In this document: positions 1 through 6,606 of the stretch, one piece after another
Position numbering within the stretch: the first letter of the stretch is position 1
How the letters are laid out: every line of letters starts with the position of its first letter
From: a virus
Lineage: Duplodnaviria; Heunggongvirae; Uroviricota; Caudoviricetes
DNA length: 41,302 nucleotides
IMG/VR virus record: IMGVR_UViG_2802429250_000004
Direction: 5' to 3' (one strand)
Notes under the pieces: generated by a model
Told to the model about the DNA's origin: nothing
Seen by the model: only the letters and a program-made list of their open reading frames with translations
Database searches by the model: none
Translations under genes and position numbers: made by a program

Positions 1-1305
1 CTATGCTTGTTTAATTACATCCGATCCCACAGCGTGGGGCATGGATGGGGCAAACTCACTCAATTTCTGGTTTAAAATTGATACTTGATCCTGATTGTTT
101 TCTGCCATCCACGATCCGTAAACGCGATAAACCATCTGAGCATCAGAGTGTCCCATTTGCTTCGCGATGAAGTTAGGGTTAGCTCCAGCGGTCAAAGACC
201 AACATGCATAAGTGTGCCTGGACTGATATGCTTTGCGGTAGCGAATCCCGGCGCGTCGCATTGCAGTTTCCCATGACTGATTAATCGACCCAACTGCATA
301 ATGGTGCCCGGCAAGGCCATTACGCGTAACGATTTGCGGATTGAAGACAAAAGTGCACGGATGCATTTCAGTTCGACCATACTCACGAAGTTTCACTTCA
401 ACCTGATACTGCTTACCAAGCCGTGTCATTTCAGCCTGATTCTTAAGCACGTCTATTGCTGGTTGAATTAGGTTGATAACACGGTTTGTTCCCGCTTCGG
501 TTTTAGGAAGAGTGAACTCTTTCGTTAATGTGTGGTTTCTTCTGATCGTCATTGTCCCTGCCTTCAGGTCTATATCTTCCCATGCCAGAGAAACCAACTC
601 CCCGTGGCGAACTCCCGTATAAACAGCTAGTGACCACATATTTTTTAACTGCTGATGCTTAAATGCGTTAATCAACCTGACAAACTCATCACGGGTTAAC
701 GGATCAGGTTCCGTTCGTGATCTCTTCAGTTGCGAAATGGCTGCGAACGGATTTTCTTTGATGTATCCGCTGTCGGCTGCGAACTGAAACATCCCCGCCA
801 TGGTGTTCATGTAGTTATTAACTGTCGGCACGGAACGTCCCTTAATGGGTGTTTTTTGCCCTCGTTTCAGAACATGATATCCGGTCAGCAAATCCTTTCG
901 TATGAACAGCAGTTCTTCCTGAGTCACAGCAGATGCAAGTCTGTTGCCTCCGATTCGGGGAACCATATTTCTTACAATGGAGCTGTAACGCCCCATCGCA
1001 TTGGTACTGATTTCCAGCTTTTTCAGATCCAGCCATTTCTCAGCCAGGTCTGCGACGGTAATTTCCTTACTTTCCGCACCAAATTTTCTCAGGTTGGGAG
1101 AGTTCGGAAACTGAGCGGCATAGTCGAAATTACCCGTCTTAATGGAAAAACAAACAGACGCTCGTAGCTCGCCAGCTATTTTCCTGTTTTTTGGTGTATC
1201 CGGCACACCGAGACTTTCCCGTACTCGTGTGCCTTTATACATAAACCATATGCGGAGTGATCCGCCATGGTTCTCAACGCCTGTTGGGTATGCTGTCTTA
1301 GCCAT
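1..1305 (-). CDS. int: Tyrosine recombinase (phage integrase)
   Basis: 434-aa ORF with a C-terminal catalytic region typical of tyrosine integrases (…RHTYACWSLTAGANPNFIAKQMGHSDAQMVYRVYGSW…); ATG at 1303-1305 preceded by AGGAGGG; position at the genome end next to xis. Confidence 0.9.
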   Translation of the reverse strand: MAKTAYPTGVENHGGSLRIWFMYKGTRVRESLGVPDTPKNRKIAGELRASVCFSIKTGNFDYAAQFPNSPNLRKFGAESKEITVADLAEKWLDLKKLEISTNAMGRYSSIVRNMVPRIGGNRLASAVTQEELLFIRKDLLTGYHVLKRGQKTPIKGRSVPTVNNYMNTMAGMFQFAADSGYIKENPFAAISQLKRSRTEPDPLTRDEFVRLINAFKHQQLKNMWSLAVYTGVRHGELVSLAWEDIDLKAGTMTIRRNHTLTKEFTLPKTEAGTNRVINLIQPAIDVLKNQAEMTRLGKQYQVEVKLREYGRTEMHPCTFVFNPQIVTRNGLAGHHYAVGSINQSWETAMRRAGIRYRKAYQSRHTYACWSLTAGANPNFIAKQMGHSDAQMVYRVYGSWMAENNQDQVSILNQKLSEFAPSMPHAVGSDVIKQA

Positions 1306-1350
1306 TGTTCCCTCCTGACGCCCAAGAGCGTATTAAGCATAAACGGTTCT

Positions 1351-1596
1351 TCATCGACGCGCACCAGGCTGTTTTTTTGACATACTTTCAACCCACTGGT
1401 CGATAGCCTTGCGGTTATACATGCATTCGCTGTTTTCTTTTGGAATACCGTCCGGTGCAACATGGAGATATTCACGACCGACAAGCCAGGATTGTTTACG
1501 TGCTCTCTCAATGGTTCCTGGGCGTAAACCTGTAATTTCGATCAGTTTTTGCTCTGTTACCCAGTCATTGGGCACAATTAAGTTAACTTCGCTCAT
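1351..1596 (-). CDS. xis: Excisionase (lambda Xis-like DNA-binding protein)
   Basis: Internal ATG at 1594-1596 with GGAG RBS; 81 aa with the motif …ITGLRPGTIERARKQSWLVGREYLHV… resembling lambda Xis (…GREYLFHESAV…); immediately upstream of int. Confidence 0.7.
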   Translation of the reverse strand: MSEVNLIVPNDWVTEQKLIEITGLRPGTIERARKQSWLVGREYLHVAPDGIPKENSECMYNRKAIDQWVESMSKKQPGARR

Positions 1597-1671
1597 TGTT
1601 TTCTCCGGTGCTGGAATGAAAGGGGGGGTGTTAACATGCCTCATTGGGTTTGAGGCTGTGTGATTCCATGG

Positions 1672-2016
1672 TTAGTCCTTGCGTAGCTCGCTGATTCTTC
1701 TGTAAGTCTCTGGCGCTTTGTTTCCGTGTATCTTCATTTCAGACTTCAACAGAGTAACGAGGGAATCCCATTCGTTGAGGATGCCTTTGAATGCCGGAAC
1801 GCGCTTTGCAACCTTGTCGAATGAATTTCTGATTTCTGGAATCTGCTCGACAAGTGCAACGCATCGCCGGAAGTCGGCTGCGTCATGTGGAGCGCCGAAG
1901 TGATGACCATAGATATTCTTTTTCAGTCCACATGCGATTGAGGCAAGAGTTGCGCTACTGATGCCGACATCGCCAGTCGTTTGCCATTTCAAAATCTTCA
2001 TAGCCAAATCTGACAT
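1672..2016 (-). CDS. Hypothetical early-left accessory protein
   Basis: 114-aa ORF, ATG at 2014-2016 with GGAGA RBS; no recognisable domain. Confidence 0.5.
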   Translation of the reverse strand: MSDLAMKILKWQTTGDVGISSATLASIACGLKKNIYGHHFGAPHDAADFRRCVALVEQIPEIRNSFDKVAKRVPAFKGILNEWDSLVTLLKSEMKIHGNKAPETYRRISELRKD

Positions 2017-2088
2017 TTCTTGTCTCCATAAAACAAAACTCGCCGTAGCGAGTTCAGATAAAAGAAATCCCCGCGAGTGCGAGGATTG

Positions 2089-2373
2089 TTATTCATTGCC
2101 GATATTCACCTTTATCGCGAACACCTTTACCGGTTTATCACCGAAGTGTGGATGTGTGATTGTCTTCACTTCATATCCGTTATACGGGACGTCAATTCTG
2201 CGACTGGAGTCGTCGCGCTTCGGATATCCCTTTGTGATAATCAGGCGGTCATATTCCCGGAACATGATTCGCTTATTCCAGTAGTCATTACACAGGCGAT
2301 ACTCTTCCGTTTTCTCTCCACGAATTATGGCATCGAAGTATTCACCTTTAACGGCTAGTTGCAGGTTAGCCAC
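2089..2373 (-). CDS. ASCH/DUF3850-like (PUA-fold) protein
   Basis: 94 aa; N-terminal …AVKGEYFDAIIRGEKTEEYR… resembles the GxKxxExR signature of ASCH/DUF3850 domains common in phage early regions. Confidence 0.5.
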   Translation of the reverse strand: MANLQLAVKGEYFDAIIRGEKTEEYRLCNDYWNKRIMFREYDRLIITKGYPKRDDSSRRIDVPYNGYEVKTITHPHFGDKPVKVFAIKVNIGNE

Positions 2374-3124
2374 GGTTAACCTCCTGCGGAGGTTCCGGTA
2401 GCGGCATCCAATTGATTACATCGCATTCAGGGATGCTGATATCATCACCAAGCCACCCTTGACCTTCAGACCAGCATTGCACGTAATACCCGTATTTTGT
2501 GTTCACTACGCACCACTGCGCGTCGTTCGGCGTCCGCTCACTACAGCTTATCCAACCATCCGGAGTTACCGGAGAGTTGCCCGATAGCGCATTACGCAAT
2601 CGCTCCAGCTTCACGTATTCCTGAACCCTGTTTCCGTCGCATGCCTGAAGCCATTGCGCAGCCTTTTGCGCATCAGTGTGAAAGGCACAAGTGCGACCGT
2701 CATCAAATTGCATTTCGTAGAGGTCAGCAACTTGTTCAAACTGCGTGTGTTGTGACTTGTAAGTTTGGCTTACAGGTTCGGCACCATGAAGCATGGCTGC
2801 GCGGCAGGCGTTCCAGCCTTCATCAAAGCCGACTATGCCATTATTTAAAGACGGACGAGCATCTGGCACCACCGGCACTGGCTTGGCTATATATAGCGGC
2901 TGAACATACCAGCCCTTTGATAACCAACTGTCAGCAATGTTTTTACTCCTCGTTATTGCCGGAATACCTAAGCCATTGTCTGAATGCAGCCATGCCACCG
3001 GTTCTGCTGCCAGCGAAGCCATGGCGATTTCATAAGCCCGACACTCAATATCATCCCGCACATCAAGGTGATTAATACGCCCCAGCATTTCGCCAAACAG
3101 CTCGTCGTTAGTTAAAGTGCTCAT
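2366..3124 (-). CDS. DUF551-domain phage protein (Eaa/Ead-like)
   Basis: 252 aa; C-terminal …PDGWISCSERTPNDAQWCVVNTKYGYYVQCW… matches the DUF551 pattern found in lambdoid ea-region proteins. Confidence 0.6.
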   Translation of the reverse strand: MSTLTNDELFGEMLGRINHLDVRDDIECRAYEIAMASLAAEPVAWLHSDNGLGIPAITRSKNIADSWLSKGWYVQPLYIAKPVPVVPDARPSLNNGIVGFDEGWNACRAAMLHGAEPVSQTYKSQHTQFEQVADLYEMQFDDGRTCAFHTDAQKAAQWLQACDGNRVQEYVKLERLRNALSGNSPVTPDGWISCSERTPNDAQWCVVNTKYGYYVQCWSEGQGWLGDDISIPECDVINWMPLPEPPQEVNRG

Positions 3125-3127
3125 GTG

Positions 3128-3568
3128 TTAGTCCTTAGCCTGTATCTGCTTCTTAACCAGTTTGCGTAGATGTGCCACGGCCATTGAAAGAGTTTCCACC
3201 GCCTGTTTATCCAGGCGTGGGGACAGAGCCACCAGTTCGTTTATTGCAATCGCTATGCCCTGTGCCTGCACTGGCGGCGCTGCGTAAAGCGGTGTTATTT
3301 CTGCCCGAAAGTCACCTATTTCATGCAGTCGCACCCACCGTTCGACTTCTGCTTTGTCAGAATACAGAGCAGTGAACGTATTATATTCATTGTCAATTTG
3401 CGTGAAGGTTGCCTTCCACGCCACTGGCTCTGCTTCCAGCGATGCCAGTGCGATACGAAACACATTGGCAAGCAGGCTGTTTGACGATTGTTTATCGTGC
3501 GCCGCGTCGCTCAGGAAACCAGTGATGAATGATTTAATCTCCGCGTTTTCTCTGGTAATAGTGGTCAT
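3128..3568 (-). CDS. Hypothetical protein
   Basis: Internal ATG at 3566-3568 (MTTITREN…) with AGGAAA RBS; 146 aa; the longer upstream extension lacks RBS support. Confidence 0.5.
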   Translation of the reverse strand: MTTITRENAEIKSFITGFLSDAAHDKQSSNSLLANVFRIALASLEAEPVAWKATFTQIDNEYNTFTALYSDKAEVERWVRLHEIGDFRAEITPLYAAPPVQAQGIAIAINELVALSPRLDKQAVETLSMAVAHLRKLVKKQIQAKD

Positions 3569-3569
3569 A

Positions 3570-3788
3570 TCAGCTTTCCTTATATGGGTTGATTTTGTTG
3601 TGCAGTGTGTTGAACGACGCCCATACCACGTCGTTATACAATTCAATAACTGGCTCAATTATTTTTCCGATTGCCCAGACAAAAATTAGCGGGGATATCG
3701 GTATCATCAACACGATAAACAGAATGAGAAACAAAAATTCTGTCGCTCTACTTTTTCGCGGATATTCTTTTCTGAATAATGTTGGCAC
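3570..3788 (-). CDS. Small hydrophobic (membrane) protein
   Basis: 72 aa, GTG start with AAGGAG 6 nt upstream; central hydrophobic stretch FLFLILFIVLMIPISPLIFVWAIG. Confidence 0.35.
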   Translation of the reverse strand: MPTLFRKEYPRKSRATEFLFLILFIVLMIPISPLIFVWAIGKIIEPVIELYNDVVWASFNTLHNKINPYKES

Positions 3789-3789
3789 A

Positions 3790-3978
3790 TCACTCTCCTT
3801 TAGTGCGCAAGTGGTTTTTCCAGCGGTTTTGTGCCGCGCTGGGCTTGTTGCAACAACTGTGACCCATCACCCCTAAAAACCCCGTCAACCTCAACCGTCT
3901 GTTACTAATCCTCAACCATCGCCAGACCCCAACACCGTTTCTGCGAGCTAACAGAATCTTTGCTTTACGGTTTTTCAT
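3790..3978 (-). CDS. Possible small basic protein (uncertain)
   Basis: ATG at 3976-3978 with AGGAG 9 nt upstream; Arg/Lys-rich N-terminus; C-terminal half looks low-quality, so this may not be a real gene. Confidence 0.25.
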   Translation of the reverse strand: MKNRKAKILLARRNGVGVWRWLRISNRRLRLTGFLGVMGHSCCNKPSAAQNRWKNHLRTKGE

Positions 3979-4096
3979 CGTTTTGCTCTCCTGCGTTTCT
4001 TTGCTGCTCGTTTCGCCGCTGCAACGCCTGTACGGCGTTTCGGTGCCGGAATTGCACGTTCTGCCGCATCACGCAGTGCCTGATAGTCAATCTTGT

Positions 4097-4342
4097 TCAC
4101 TCTTCATCCTCCAAGTCGGCAACGGCGTCCATCACATCAGAACCGCGAATAACCTCAAAAGCACGGCAGGCCATTTCAAACACCTGTTGTTCTTGCGGGT
4201 GAGGAGACTCCCAATATTTGAAGCCTGGGCGATGCGTGTACCCCATCATTGAATAAAAATCACCAGCAAGCTTAATCGCGGCATCGACAAGCTCTCTGTT
4301 AGTCATTCTTTTTCCGCTCACTGGTTGCCTCCTTTGCGCCAC
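4097..4342 (-). CDS. Hypothetical protein
   Basis: 81-aa ORF (GTG at 4340-4342; alternative ATG at 4304-4306); acidic C-terminus; co-directional with the early left operon. Confidence 0.4.
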
Positions 4343-4518
4343 ATCGCATTCAGATATTTGTTGTCATTAACAGAACCGAAACTCTTTCTCTTAAGAAATT
4401 CCTCTCTCGATGGCATTGGCTTTACGCGTTGGCGAATAATCATTTCTGCCGGAAGAATGCCGGGATTGTATGCAAGTCCTCTCATGGTAAATTCCTCAGT
4501 CATTACTGATAGCGCCAT
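4318..4518 (-). CDS. Hypothetical protein
   Basis: 66-aa ORF in operon context; no clear RBS. Confidence 0.35.
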
Positions 4519-4792
4519 AGCGTGAGCGGTAATTACGCAGGCGCGGGTCGATATATTCAGGGAATTTGTCTATTGTCGCTTTTCGCAACGGTCTCATTGC
4601 TGTTTCGTTTGTTCGGTCCTTCTCATCTTTTAACGCGAGTTGTATATCGCGTCGGTACATCCGTTCTGCTTTTGTTTCTGGTGGCAGATCAATAAACGTG
4701 TCGAAAATGTTTTTGATATTTTCCAGCACCTCCGCCTTGGAGCTACCGGAGCAATTGCGCGGGTCATCCGCACCATACAGAGGCGCTGGCAT
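4496..4792 (-). CDS. Hypothetical protein
   Basis: 98-aa ORF, ATG at 4790-4792; operon context. Confidence 0.45.
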
Positions 4793-4815
4793 AATGGGAG
4801 CCTTATTTTCAGTAA

Positions 4816-5403
4816 TCAGAAAGGAGGGTAATCGTTCTGGCTGTAACCATAATCATCTGCATGATTATGGCTTACGTTTTTAGAGCGATTGTCTTTATCT
4901 TTGAGGCTGGCAACCATGTTGGCGATAGTTTCTGGTTGCTTGCCTTCCGCCTTTTCTTTAAGGGTTTGACCTGTTTGTGCAATAAACGGGATGCGTATTT
5001 CCATCTGGTAGCTGTCTGCGCCAGTCTTTTTGTTTGTGGTTAATACTTTCTGGAGCACTAACCCGATTTTCTTTCCATGAAATTCAGGTGCAACAAATTT
5101 ACTGGCGGAAACCATATGTTGCGTTAATTGTCCAATCCCGGCACACCCCATCATAGCGTGAACGACATTTGCGCCAAATTTGTTTTCCGTGCCGTCATTT
5201 TTCTGAACACAAACGCTAAGATACTGGATTTTACGTCCGTCGTCGGATTCTCCAGAAAACTCAATAAATTTGGCTCCTTTTTCTGATTGCTTTAGTTCTG
5301 CTTCAGTAATGGTAATGATATGAGCGCCAGTTTCGTTAATAAAACCACCTTGCCCTGCGGTCAGTGCTGCTTCTTCGTTATAAGTAAAAATCACGTTGCT
5401 CAT
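4816..5403 (-). CDS. SSB-like protein partnered with Sak4
   Basis: 195 aa; start ATG overlaps the Sak4 stop (ATGA); C-terminus …DDYGYSQNDYPPF resembles the acidic SSB tail (…DDDIPF) used for partner recruitment. Confidence 0.6.
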   Translation of the reverse strand: MSNVIFTYNEEAALTAGQGGFINETGAHIITITEAELKQSEKGAKFIEFSGESDDGRKIQYLSVCVQKNDGTENKFGANVVHAMMGCAGIGQLTQHMVSASKFVAPEFHGKKIGLVLQKVLTTNKKTGADSYQMEIRIPFIAQTGQTLKEKAEGKQPETIANMVASLKDKDNRSKNVSHNHADDYGYSQNDYPPF

Positions 5404-6080
5404 GCGGCGTTTTCCTTAATTTGATGAACATTATTGATGCCGTAGTAATCACAAACAGTGGCATCGACAAAAGAGAGATCGTTATCAATCTCATTGGAAT
5501 CAAACATTCCCATTGGGGATTTAACAGTGTCTGCACCGTTGTTTTTTGTGGTGAAAAAGAACTGGTCATCACGGGTAAGGGTGCGAAGAACTATAGTAAA
5601 CATGCCTTCGACAGTGATTTTCTCGTCCAGCATTTTGCCGATAGTTTTCATTTTCACGCGCCCCATAGGGGTTTCTTCGGTGTGCGCAAGAAAATAGACT
5701 CTCAGGTCATCAGGTGCATCCTGTGCAGCCTTAATCACCTCCCATGCGTGGCGGCCTATCTCAGTAAATTTATCAAACGATTTTTCTTCTGAGCGGCGCA
5801 TAAACTCATTGCTCATCACATACTGGAAGTCATCAACAATAACGATTCTTTTCCCGTATTCGTGAGCACGCTTAATTACGGCAACTATTACGTCCCATTT
5901 GTCAGTGGTAACTACGGTTCCTTTTTTTGCACCGTAATCCCATGCAAGCCAATCTTTTGATTTAAATGGTAGCGGCTTGCCTATTGGTTTTATAAGAATT
6001 GCTTCCTCTGGATTGATATTTCTCATGCTGGTTGATTTTCCGGTGCCAGATTCACCGAGTATTAATGTCGCAGTTCCCAT
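5400..6080 (-). CDS. sak4: Sak4-family RecA-like recombination ATPase
   Basis: 226 aa with Walker A GESGTGKST near the N-terminus and Walker-B-like IVIVDDF; size and organisation of phage Sak4 single-strand annealing proteins; GAGG RBS. Confidence 0.75.
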   Translation of the reverse strand: MGTATLILGESGTGKSTSMRNINPEEAILIKPIGKPLPFKSKDWLAWDYGAKKGTVVTTDKWDVIVAVIKRAHEYGKRIVIVDDFQYVMSNEFMRRSEEKSFDKFTEIGRHAWEVIKAAQDAPDDLRVYFLAHTEETPMGRVKMKTIGKMLDEKITVEGMFTIVLRTLTRDDQFFFTTKNNGADTVKSPMGMFDSNEIDNDLSFVDATVCDYYGINNVHQIKENAA

Positions 6081-6387: not shown

Positions 6388-6520
6388 TTTTGGGGACTCC
6401 TGGCTGATTAAGTATGTCGATAAGGCGTTTCCATCCGTCACGTAATTTACGGGTGATTCGTTCAAGTAAAGATTCGGAAGGGCAGCCAGCAACAGGCCAC
6501 CCTGCAATGGCATATTGCAT
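6380..6520 (-). CDS. cIII: CIII (FtsH inhibitor protecting CII)
   Basis: 46 aa MQYAIAGWPVAGCPSESLLERITRKLRDGWKRLIDILNQPGVPKNG, matching lambda CIII as I recall it (truncated a few residues at the C-terminus); AAGGAG RBS. Confidence 0.7.
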   Translation of the reverse strand: MQYAIAGWPVAGCPSESLLERITRKLRDGWKRLIDILNQPGVPKNG

Positions 6521-6606
6521 GGTGTGCTCCTTATTTATACATAACGAAAACGCCTCGAGTGAAGCGTTATTGGTATGCGGTAAAGCCGCCAACAGGCGGC
6601 TATTTG

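Follow-up and report, generated by a model that had tools for sequence, protein, structure and literature searches.

Three co-oriented genes and a predicted terminator pair beside xis in a P22-like Escherichia prophage: a probable ea/exo-xis accessory block

In the early left operons of lambdoid and P22-like phages, the described systems closest to the locus reported here are the block beside xis in phage HK022 and the proteins Ea22 of lambda and Stx phages and EaA of P22. Ea22 is pro-lysogenic, its C-terminal domain is mosaic and exchangeable, and one Stx-phage Ea22 variant carries a DUF551 domain. A DUF551 domain is also found in YfdS of the E. coli CPS-53 prophage, deletion of which affects sensitivity to H2O2; together with YfdQR, YfdS has been linked to replication initiation and to multicopy suppression of hda-185. 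The block itself is already known: it is standard and very common in lambdoid and P22-like prophages, its HK022 members gp32, gp34 and gp35 have been deposited and annotated, and RefSeq contains thousands of copies.

We analyzed one such block in a window of 41,302 nucleotides, the whole stretch of DNA under study, from a prophage integrated next to fliE in the unclassified Escherichia genome GCA_002965135.1. The interval at positions 1672-3124, on the minus strand, contains three closely packed genes, here called A, B and C, and a terminator pair. Its open reading frames, all on the minus strand, lie exactly where the first-pass annotation had placed them. That annotation named two of the genes but missed the terminators as well as gene A, which has the least annotation of the three. 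The features, in the order of transcription, are the following.

3128-3568, minus strand: gene D (flanking), 146 amino acids; phrog_60, phrog_660 and phrog_5117; a gene call of the source assembly
2366-3124, minus strand: gene C, 252 amino acids, EaA-type mosaic protein
2384-2557, minus strand: DUF551 domain of gene C, residues 190-247
2089-2373, minus strand: gene B, 94 amino acids, ASCH/PUA-like, with a GTG start and a GGAGG ribosome-binding site
2056-2087, minus strand: predicted terminator hairpin 1 with T tract, homologue of HK022 tL4
2026-2055, minus strand: predicted terminator hairpin 2 with T tract
1672-2016, minus strand: gene A, 114 amino acids, predicted all-helical, phrog_1229; the last gene before xis
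1351-1596, minus strand: xis (flanking), DUF1233 excisionase (Pfam, 2e-31), 81 amino acids in the source-assembly gene call

Judged from their sequences, genes A, B and C are real genes and not chance reading frames, because each matches a PHROG family (E-values of 1e-51 to 1e-52), each is preceded by a Shine-Dalgarno sequence, and, in A and B, substitutions relative to distant homologues are concentrated at third codon positions. By codon position, the substitutions numbered 26/16/59 for gene A against Cronobacter, and 20/13/59 and 24/12/64 for gene B against Erwinia and Lonsdalea, respectively. The start of gene B overlaps the stop of gene C by 8 nt (GTGGCTAA), and only 3 nt separate genes D and C.

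On one strand, the gene order runs N...cIII, kil, Sak4-like, SSB-like, abc2, small accessory genes, D, C, B, the two terminators, A, xis and int. The source-assembly gene calls place the N peptide, SieB, cIII, Kil, Abc2 and DUF4014 in order on this strand, and a cIII thermoregulator RNA was detected in the operon. The Abc2/SSB-like/Sak4-like recombination module occupies positions 4496-6080, and the accessory region extends to about 4518, the interval being only its xis-proximal half. This layout agrees with the earlier placement of the genes in an ea-type region between xis and the recombination module, on the strand of N, cIII and kil. The promoter-distal position fits the gene order and the tL4-type terminators, as would be expected of genes transcribed late in the early left operon. 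Coverage of positions 1300-3700 reached 80% in none of the phage records or complete E. coli genomes, and the region is evidently mosaic, in keeping with its description as variable. The genes of the block are nevertheless present in 17-43% of complete E. coli genomes, where the copies are named only "hypothetical", "ASCH domain-containing" or "DUF551 domain-containing". We conclude, with a probability of roughly 0.7, that in identity and anatomy the interval is the xis-proximal end of the putatively dispensable ea or exo-xis accessory region of a P22-like prophage.

Just as the first-pass annotation had held, no function is assigned to A, B or C in Pfam, NCBIfam, PHROGs or PADLOC. Profile searches with NCBIfam and PADLOC gave zero matches for the three proteins; since PADLOC does not include anti-defence proteins, it is a weak test of an anti-defence role. 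Searches of PDB sequences, by single sequence or by family profile, returned nothing relevant for any of the three, and a BFVD search found uncharacterised relatives only.

The 79-nt spacer between genes B and A (folding energy -27.3 kcal/mol, z = -4.8) contains two hairpins that were detected by a terminator scan. Hairpin 1 has a 9-bp stem, starts 1 nt past the stop codon of gene B and is identical at 28 of 29 nt to HK022 tL4 (X51962, 2417-2445), a single loop base being different. Hairpin 2 has an 8-bp stem and the tail TGTTTTATGG, which runs into the ribosome-binding site of gene A (GGAGA); it is also kept in HK022. The hairpin-plus-T-tract pattern and the folding energy suggest that both function as intrinsic terminators. 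No promoter-like site was found upstream of gene A or gene B, and a promoter scan of positions 1200-4400 returned a single weak match, inside gene C, versus 3.7 expected from shuffled sequence. The genes would be delayed-early and reached only by antiterminated pL transcription, and gene A, like xis and int, would lie behind terminators.

The product of gene C consists of an N-terminal helical segment ending in "...ASLAAEPVAW", middle modules and a C-terminal DUF551 domain, with module boundaries defined as the break points of homologue alignments. It matched phrog_60 (E 1.5e-52) and gave several partial PHROG matches. The DUF551 assignment of the first-pass annotation was upheld by profile search: PF04448 matched over its full length (residues 190-247, model positions 1-68 of 68) with 37.4 bits, the cut-off being 22 (E 4.7e-9). 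Precomputed PF04448 assignments are found on nearly all close homologues, and a database protein 100% identical to gene C is named "DUF551 domain-containing protein [unclassified Escherichia]". Relatives recovered by tblastn carry the depositor annotations EaA, Ea22 or DUF551, and include EaA of Salmonella phage As1 (58% over residues 34-197), EaA of PA5 (65% over residues 115-250) and eaA of BTP1 (49% over residues 126-192); the EaA proteins compared were these depositor-annotated relatives. Pfam Ead_Ea22 (PF13935) gave no match in gene C at E<=0.1. Elsewhere in the accessory region, a 41-aa remnant ORF at 3975-4100 showed a sub-threshold match to PF13935 (26.4 bits; cut-off 27). Genes C and D share one 15-residue segment (11/15 identical by BLASTP), and an N-terminal module "ASL(E/A)AEPVAW" is common to both. 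A paper on Gifsy-1 and RtcR that mentions an eaa homologue proved irrelevant.

The DUF551 domain has conserved ends, WISCSERxP ... HWMPLPEPP, and a hypervariable core. Both flanks (W-x-S-x-S-E-R-x-P and H-W-M-P-L-P-E-P-P) are present in gene C and in 102 of its 120 nearest homologues, and it is from these homologues, rather than from the Pfam seed, that they are taken as the hallmark of the domain. The cores of these 102 close homologues fall into 10 variants with mutual identities of 16-38%, and the 60 residues directly upstream of the domain are 93-100% identical among the same proteins. Conserved ends around a hypervariable core make DUF551 a candidate recognition module, and at least 10 unrelated-looking cores in a near-identical scaffold is the pattern that would be expected of a module tracking a variable partner. 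Alternatively, the variation could reflect neutral cassette shuffling at the conserved flanks rather than selection.

Gene B matched phrog_625 (E 5.5e-51) and had been described as ASCH/DUF3850-like with a PUA fold. The DUF3850 part of this description was not borne out by profile search, as PF12961 scored 13.1 bits (E 0.12), short of its cut-off of 22.9, and matched only 1 of 33 family members. ASCH (PF04266) also stayed below its cut-off, with 18.6 bits versus 21.2 (E 0.0032) over residues 6-28, corresponding to model positions 1-23 of 103 only; 22 of the 33 family members matched ASCH at E<=10, the best at 0.0032. When the family profile was searched against PDB sequences, no ASCH entry was found. 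The ASCH part of the description is favoured instead by a motif and, more tentatively, by a predicted fold. The motif GxKxxExR, reportedly defined for ASCH by Iyer, Burroughs and Aravind in 2006 and said to lie after strand 1 and helix 1, is present as G19-E-K21-T-E-E24-Y-R26. In the family alignment (n=33), the invariant residues include K21, E24 and R26 of the motif as well as E23, T47, D55 and H74, and conservation of G19 is at least 90%. The AlphaFold model, of only moderate confidence (pLDDT 80.6; two of five models collapsed to about 38), has a predicted beta-alpha-beta-alpha-beta4 topology forming a small barrel. In a Foldseek search of the PDB, its ranks 1-5 were all ASCH structures (probability 0.82-0.97, TMq 0.47-0.55, weak E-values of 0.024-0.15), and YTH domains, which belong to the same PUA-like superfamily, came next. 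Gene B thus appears to be ASCH/PUA-like by signature motif and, tentatively, by predicted fold, while remaining below the Pfam ASCH cut-off. Literature on ASCH in phages yielded no function for the protein. Relatives in Erwinia and Lonsdalea prophages are located in the nin region of the rightward operon, so linkage between the ASCH gene and the ea region is not fixed.

On the opposite strand of gene B, the ORF at 2077-2358 (plus strand; phrog_20945, E 3.6e-55) was rejected as a gene, since substitutions fall on its first codon positions and it contains stops in Lonsdalea. As a "shadow ORF" antisense to the ASCH gene, it has been carried into a PHROG family of its own.

Gene A matched phrog_1229, whose function is unassigned in PHROGs, over residues 1-114 (profile positions 1-113 of 116; E 1.4e-51). 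No Pfam, NCBIfam, PADLOC or PDB match and no Pfam or InterPro name was found for it. A Pfam scan of 72 family members gave nothing, and one of 52 longer fused relatives gave no informative partner, only one L7/L12 C-terminal domain and one coiled-coil. The predicted structure is a compact all-helical domain of seven helices (pLDDT 96.5), and it had no significant fold match in the PDB. The family comprises about 1,800 clusters at 50% identity, from phages of Proteobacteria and Actinobacteria. Most of the invariant polar residues of gene A are located at helix N-termini (SSxT, DPxD, PExR, WDxL), where they look like capping boxes in the model. In enterobacterial prophages, gene A is always directly beside xis/int, across three excisionase types. 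Elsewhere, relatives occur in phages for which the 2.5-3.5 kb examined to each side of the gene contain no annotated integrase. Their neighbours in these early regions are RdgC-like genes in Salmonella phage Solent and Klebsiella phage Carvaje, genes for restriction alleviation and nuclease inhibition in Vibrio D79 and Pseudomonas D14H, and DNA methyltransferases in Gordonia, although the association is a loose one. Many truncated or chimeric copies in the databases are fused to Erf, Kil, Ea22 or MazG-like fragments. The label "lipoprotein" on one Stx-phage copy was rejected, as the sequence lacks a canonical lipobox (S at -3), the family does not conserve Cys29 and the model is compact, globular and helical.

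The likeliest mechanism, which we put forward tentatively and at somewhat short of even odds, is that A, B and C serve host takeover or counter-defence as small binding proteins, and are not lysogeny regulators or enzymes. Gene C would act as the scaffold for an exchangeable DUF551 recognition cassette, the PUA-like cleft of gene B would accommodate RNA or a (modified) nucleotide, and gene A would bind a conserved partner through its compact seven-helix domain. Host takeover is preferred to lysogeny control because of the gene A relatives with no integrase annotated nearby and the early genes beside them, the nin-region ASCH copies and the variety of DUF551 cores. Binding is preferred to catalysis because of the capping-box residues of gene A and the classical GxKxxExR motif of gene B. 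Against a takeover role, the published phenotypes of Ea22 and YfdS point to lysis-lysogeny or stress effects. We also consider it conceivable, if unlikely, that gene A represents a large unnamed phage early family with a helical fold lacking a solved relative, whose members serve widely as inhibitors or sponges of a conserved host factor or defence pathway. A weaker companion to this idea is that an arms race has shaped the DUF551 core into an exchangeable cassette that sets specificity.

The phenotypes just named lend themselves to a different reading, in which the genes modulate lysis and lysogeny like those of the lambda and Phi24B exo-xis region and adjust both the choice of lysogeny and prophage induction, oxidative stress being one possible setting. 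The interval occupies the position of the exo-xis region, whose genes have been shown in published work to change lysogenisation and induction, and the constant place of gene A beside xis/int in enterobacterial prophages, the pro-lysogenic Ea22 with its DUF551-bearing Stx variant and the H2O2 phenotype of YfdS are all in line with it. However, the characterised exo-xis genes orf60a, orf61, orf63, orf73 and ea8.5 are all absent from the interval, gene C has no Pfam Ead_Ea22 match, and both the gene A relatives in phages with no integrase annotated nearby and the ASCH genes of nin regions count against it; we regard this reading as possible but doubtful. A host benefit in the lysogen, such as stress tolerance, superinfection exclusion or defence, would be expected if one or more of the genes were "morons" transcribed while the prophage is repressed. 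Gene-plus-terminator cassettes, such as B followed by tL4 or HK022 gp33 with its own terminator, recall such elements, and the yfdS deletion phenotype in CPS-53 is consistent with them. This seems quite improbable, given that neither A nor B is preceded by a promoter-like site, that promoter matches were fewer than in shuffled sequence, that the genes all run in the direction of the pL operon and are closely packed with it, C and B even overlapping, and that PADLOC detected no defence genes.

For gene B alone, enzymatic activity must be weighed against binding. The protein could be an ASCH-type hydrolase acting on host or phage nucleotides or RNA, comparable either to YqfB, an ac4C/N4-acylcytosine amidohydrolase, or to ZmASCH, a ssRNA ribonuclease. 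YqfB (9kyh, 9kyf) and Zymomonas ASCH (5gus, 5guq) are among its best fold matches (TM about 0.53), and the invariant residues of its family also count in favour of this reading. Nevertheless, identity to these enzymes is 12-16% (E 0.08-0.5), gene B is shorter than both, and no profile reaches its curated cut-off. Moreover, the catalytic Thr24 of the YqfB amidohydrolase presumably occupies the Glu position of the motif, where gene B has Glu. An enzymatic role is therefore unlikely. Finally, the mosaic nature of the region, the truncated and chimeric gene A copies and the antisense ORF with its own PHROG family might suggest that the frames are decaying remnants or chance frames without function. 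This explanation, already disfavoured, is extremely improbable in view of the third-position bias in the A and B frames, the family-wide invariant residues kept across very distant phages, the very confident gene A model, the ribosome-binding sites and the C/B frame overlap.

No new function emerges from the interval, and its significance is small. Gene A, with a huge family, no Pfam model and no fold relative in the PDB, is a cheap target for a structure and interaction screen.

Compared with known systems, gene C shares with E. coli YfdS only the DUF551 domain family. Like P22 EaA and lambda/Stx Ea22, it is a modular early-left protein with an exchangeable C-terminal domain. Unlike Ea22, it has neither a Pfam Ead_Ea22 match nor an evident coiled-coil tetramerisation region, and the pro-lysogenic phenotype is one described for Ea22 itself. 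Gene B shares the motif and, as far as its moderately confident model goes, the topology of the ASCH structures 2z0t (PH0355), 3iuw (EF NP_814290), 1xne (PF0470), 9kyh (YqfB) and 5gus (Zymomonas), at 12-19% identity, TM about 0.5 and E 0.02-0.2. The xis/int type, a DUF1233 excisionase with a 434-aa integrase, differs from that of HK022. HK022 alone carries a gp33-plus-terminator cassette of about 195 nt, which is located between the hairpins and gp32 and flanked by repeated terminator/RBS/start sequences. HK022 gp35 matches the DUF551 end of gene C and corresponds to its C-terminal part only, gene C having added N-terminal modules. In contrast to these differences, positions 1670-2581 are 95% identical to HK022 DNA, gp32 is 96.5% identical to the gene A protein, and gp34 matches gene B, with 94 amino acids and the same 8-nt overlap on the upstream gene. 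Thus, apart from the gp33 cassette, the block of HK022 (AF069308, X51962), gp35-gp34-tL4-gp33-gp32-xis, is found here in the same order and on the same strand.

ORFs as long as the three minus-strand ORFs at 1672-3124, here genes A, B and C, commonly arise by chance throughout the window, so other evidence of their reality was needed.

1672-2016, minus strand: gene A, an ORF of 114 aa; together the three ORFs fill the interval of the first-pass annotation exactly
2089-2373, minus strand: gene B, an ORF of 94 aa with a GTG start
2366-3124, minus strand: gene C, an ORF of 252 aa

All three matched PHROG families end to end (A, phrog_1229, 1.4e-51; B, phrog_625, 5.5e-51; C, phrog_60, 1.5e-52), and each is preceded by a correctly spaced Shine-Dalgarno sequence (GGAGA, GGAGG, AGGA). 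Relative to distant homologues, substitutions were in excess at third codon positions, both in gene B (20/13/59 by codon position relative to Erwinia and 24/12/64 relative to Lonsdalea) and in gene A (26/16/59 relative to Cronobacter), and the source assembly annotation also calls the three ORFs. On these four lines of evidence, A, B and C are real genes. The C stop and B start overlap within GTGGCTAA, and 3 nt separate the start of C from the end of gene D, which lies 5' of it (3128-3568). An ORF antisense to gene B (2077-2358, plus strand, 93 aa) matched phrog_20945 (E 3.6e-55) and was rejected as a gene: substitutions fall on its first codon positions and stops interrupt it in Lonsdalea, marking it as a shadow ORF. 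The family phrog_20945 therefore looks like a propagated mis-annotation.

In the source contig (PTSE01000003.1, GCA_002965135.1; L007), the prophage adjoins fliE. Its int end abuts fliE and fliFGH (L007 9142-12759, beyond the window start), which puts the attachment site beside the flagellar region. We took the prophage to be P22-like from the lengths and order of the right-half ORFs only, and from an apparent likeness to the P22 terminase, portal, coat and tailspike. Its early left genes include the following.

same strand, last but one of the ordered genes, before int: xis (DUF1233)
4496-4792, minus strand: abc2 (anti-RecBCD), from profile matches
4816-5403, minus strand: SSB-like protein (phrog_743)
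5400-6080, minus strand: Sak4-like annealing protein (phrog_2872, ATPase)
6475-6533, minus strand: cIII thermoregulator RNA (Rfam Lambda_thermo, 88.5 bits against a gathering score of 50)

The order on this single strand is N-peptide gene, cIII, kil, Sak4-like, SSB-like, abc2 and DUF2737, then two small ORFs, a 41-aa Ead/Ea22 remnant, DUF4014, D, C, B, A, xis and int. From this order the accessory region spans approximately 1672-4518, with 1672-3124 as its xis-proximal half. The earlier proposal that these are ea-type accessory genes late in the early left operon was upheld. The Lambda_thermo match confirms a lambda-type cIII leader in an otherwise P22-like prophage. The recombination module (4496-6080, minus strand) consists of abc2 and the SSB-like and Sak4-like genes rather than Erf or Red-beta, and no abc1 was recognised in it. 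The 41-aa ORF (3975-4100, minus strand) matched only the first 30 positions of the Ead/Ea22 model at 26.4 bits, below the cut-off of 27, and looks like a truncated ea22-type remnant of mosaic recombination. The 72-aa DUF4014 protein (3570-3788, minus strand) has a hydrophobic middle segment and matches phrog_1832, whose PHROGs label, 'released from the phage upon host infection', is odd for a gene of the early left operon. At least 80% coverage of window positions 1300-3700 was found in none of 483 matching phage records and in none of the 3,832 complete E. coli genomes (of 5,426) with a match. The accessory region is a mosaic.

Gene B had been described as DUF3850-like, a label that failed the profile test (PF12961, 13.1 bits, E 0.12, cut-off 22.9). 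The accompanying ASCH assignment stood on motif and fold only, since the Pfam ASCH score (18.6 bits, aligning just the first 23 model positions) was below the cut-off of 21.2. The complete GxKxxExR signature is present (G19, K21, E24, R26); none of 33 family members deviates at K21, E24 or R26, and G19 is conserved in at least 90% of them. AlphaFold predicts a beta-alpha-beta-alpha-beta4 topology (pLDDT 80.6; two of the five models collapsed). When this model was compared with the PDB by Foldseek, the top five matches were all ASCH structures (PH0355, 3iuw, PF0470, YqfB and Zymomonas ASCH; probability 0.82-0.97, TM approximately 0.5, weak E of 0.02-0.15), with YTH domains ranking after them. 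Signature, predicted topology and fold matches thus support a probable PUA-like ASCH fold. NCBI names the family 'ASCH domain-containing protein'; we term B ASCH-like rather than a demonstrated member. The gene occurs over at least 80% of its length in 1,466 of 5,426 complete E. coli genomes. Prophages of Erwinia and Lonsdalea carry a 72-74% identical homologue between the replication genes and ninB, so the gene does not belong exclusively to the ea region.

For gene C, the DUF551 call was borne out: residues 190-247 match the full length of the Pfam model (37.4 bits, cut-off 22), and no other Pfam family matched. An identical protein is recorded from 'unclassified Escherichia', and the relatives that tblastn detected among phage records bear the names EaA, Ea22/EaE or DUF551. 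Alignment break points among 120 homologues delimit at least three modules (approximately 1-100/134, 105-197 and the DUF551 end), and variants include 269-aa proteins without DUF551, 197-aa proteins with an internal deletion and 385-411-aa proteins with extra modules. C and D share only a 15-residue '...ASL(A/E)AEPVAW' segment. In 102 homologues with both DUF551 ends (WISCSERxP and HWMPLPEPP), the intervening 39-66 residues fall into 10 variants with 16-38% identity to each other; the 60 residues directly upstream are 93-100% identical, and a precomputed PF04448 match persists in nearly all. DUF551 here therefore behaves like an exchangeable core set between conserved ends, a pattern that we did not find described in the papers examined. 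The literature on DUF551 is thin and reports no biochemical function. DUF551 occurs in one Stx-phage Ea22 variant, fused to other domains, and in E. coli YfdS, linked to H2O2 sensitivity and, together with YfdQR, to suppression of hda-185.

Gene A, a helical orphan that the first-pass annotation left unnamed, is 96.5% identical to HK022 gp32, noted as 'N15 early protein homolog'. Of 5,426 complete E. coli genomes, 915 carry it, in every one as 'hypothetical protein'. Neither it nor 72 diverse relatives had Pfam, NCBIfam, PADLOC or PDB sequence matches. Searched exhaustively with HMMER, 1.84 billion cluster representatives yielded 1,792 clusters at E<=1e-3 and 161 at E<=1e-10. In the 72-sequence alignment G18, S20, P43, D45, D48, C52 and W83 are invariant, and W11, S21, G30, R51, L55 and P60 nearly so. 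Many conserved polar residues lie at helix N-termini (SSxT, DPxD, PExR, WDxL); these are perhaps capping boxes and not parts of an active site. In BFVD, a giant-virus protein (A0A3G5AI15, Sylvanvirus sp.) resembles the gene A model structurally (TM 0.70, probability 1.0, 16% identity, E 0.018); it could be a highly diverged member of the family or just a similar helical bundle.

In enterobacterial prophages gene A is always last before xis/int (HK022 Xis, DUF1233 or TorI excisionase); in Cronobacter and Citrobacter, integrase follows directly. Many database copies are chimeric or truncated, with in-frame fusions to MazG-like pyrophosphohydrolase, Erf, Ea22 or Kil fragments, and in one Stx phage a Dam methyltransferase gene directly follows a 76-aa stub.

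database proteins P0135, P0137, P0153, P0158, P0171, P0175 and Stx-phage locus L026, 2474-2704: chimeric or truncated gene A copies

Deletions or recombination events thus seem often to end in gene A, beside xis. In distant phages, its relatives lie in early regions near RdgC-like genes (Salmonella phage Solent, Klebsiella phage Carvaje), restriction-alleviation or nuclease-inhibitor genes (Vibrio D79, Pseudomonas D14H), DNA methyltransferases (Gordonia) and recombinase and exonuclease genes (Yersinia P840).

The 72-nt B-A spacer contains two hairpin and T-tract elements (2087-2066 and 2055-2036, minus strand), and a 79-nt segment made up of the spacer and some adjoining bases folds far better than shuffled sequence (z = -4.8). 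In the HK022 int-xis record the first hairpin, matching at 28 of 29 bases, bears the annotation tL4. Judged by gene order, shared strand, the C/B frame overlap and the tL4-type terminators, A, B and C are probably delayed-early genes, transcribed from pL under antitermination; the expression of gene A would go along with that of xis and int.

What these products do can be proposed tentatively. The proposal we favour, at a probability of roughly 0.4, is that they are small binding proteins serving host takeover or counter-defence: both A and B are also found away from lysogeny modules and the ea region, in distant phages A often has anti-restriction or recombination genes nearby, and the variation of the DUF551 core resembles that of a module tracking a variable partner. 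The main alternative, which we regard as rather unlikely, is that the three tune the lysis-lysogeny decision, as has been shown for exo-xis genes of lambda and Phi24B, Ea22 included. Less likely still are the readings that the genes are morons expressed from the lysogen, that B acts as an enzyme, or that the block has no function.

The A-B-C block is ordinary. It is already public in many copies, annotated 'hypothetical', 'ASCH domain-containing' or 'DUF551 domain-containing', in keeping with the first-pass statement that no function is assigned. Interest remains in the family size and structural orphan status of gene A and in the hypervariable DUF551 core. The longest collinear match was to HK022 (95% identity, window 1670-2581), and the block corresponds to its gp35-gp34-tL4-gp32-xis arrangement. 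However, the N-terminal part of the EaA-type gene differs here and gp33 is missing: HK022 has an extra cassette of approximately 195 nt, gp33 with its own terminator (L001, the HK022 record, 2848-3053), absent at window 2017-2035. The HK022 annotation mentions a lambda homologue of gp33 without documenting it; this may be lambda orf55. Near-repeats of the terminator tail, RBS and start, TTTTAT(T)GGAGAnnAnAAATG, border the cassette, which suggests that the two phages may differ by its simple gain or loss through recombination at repeated junctions.
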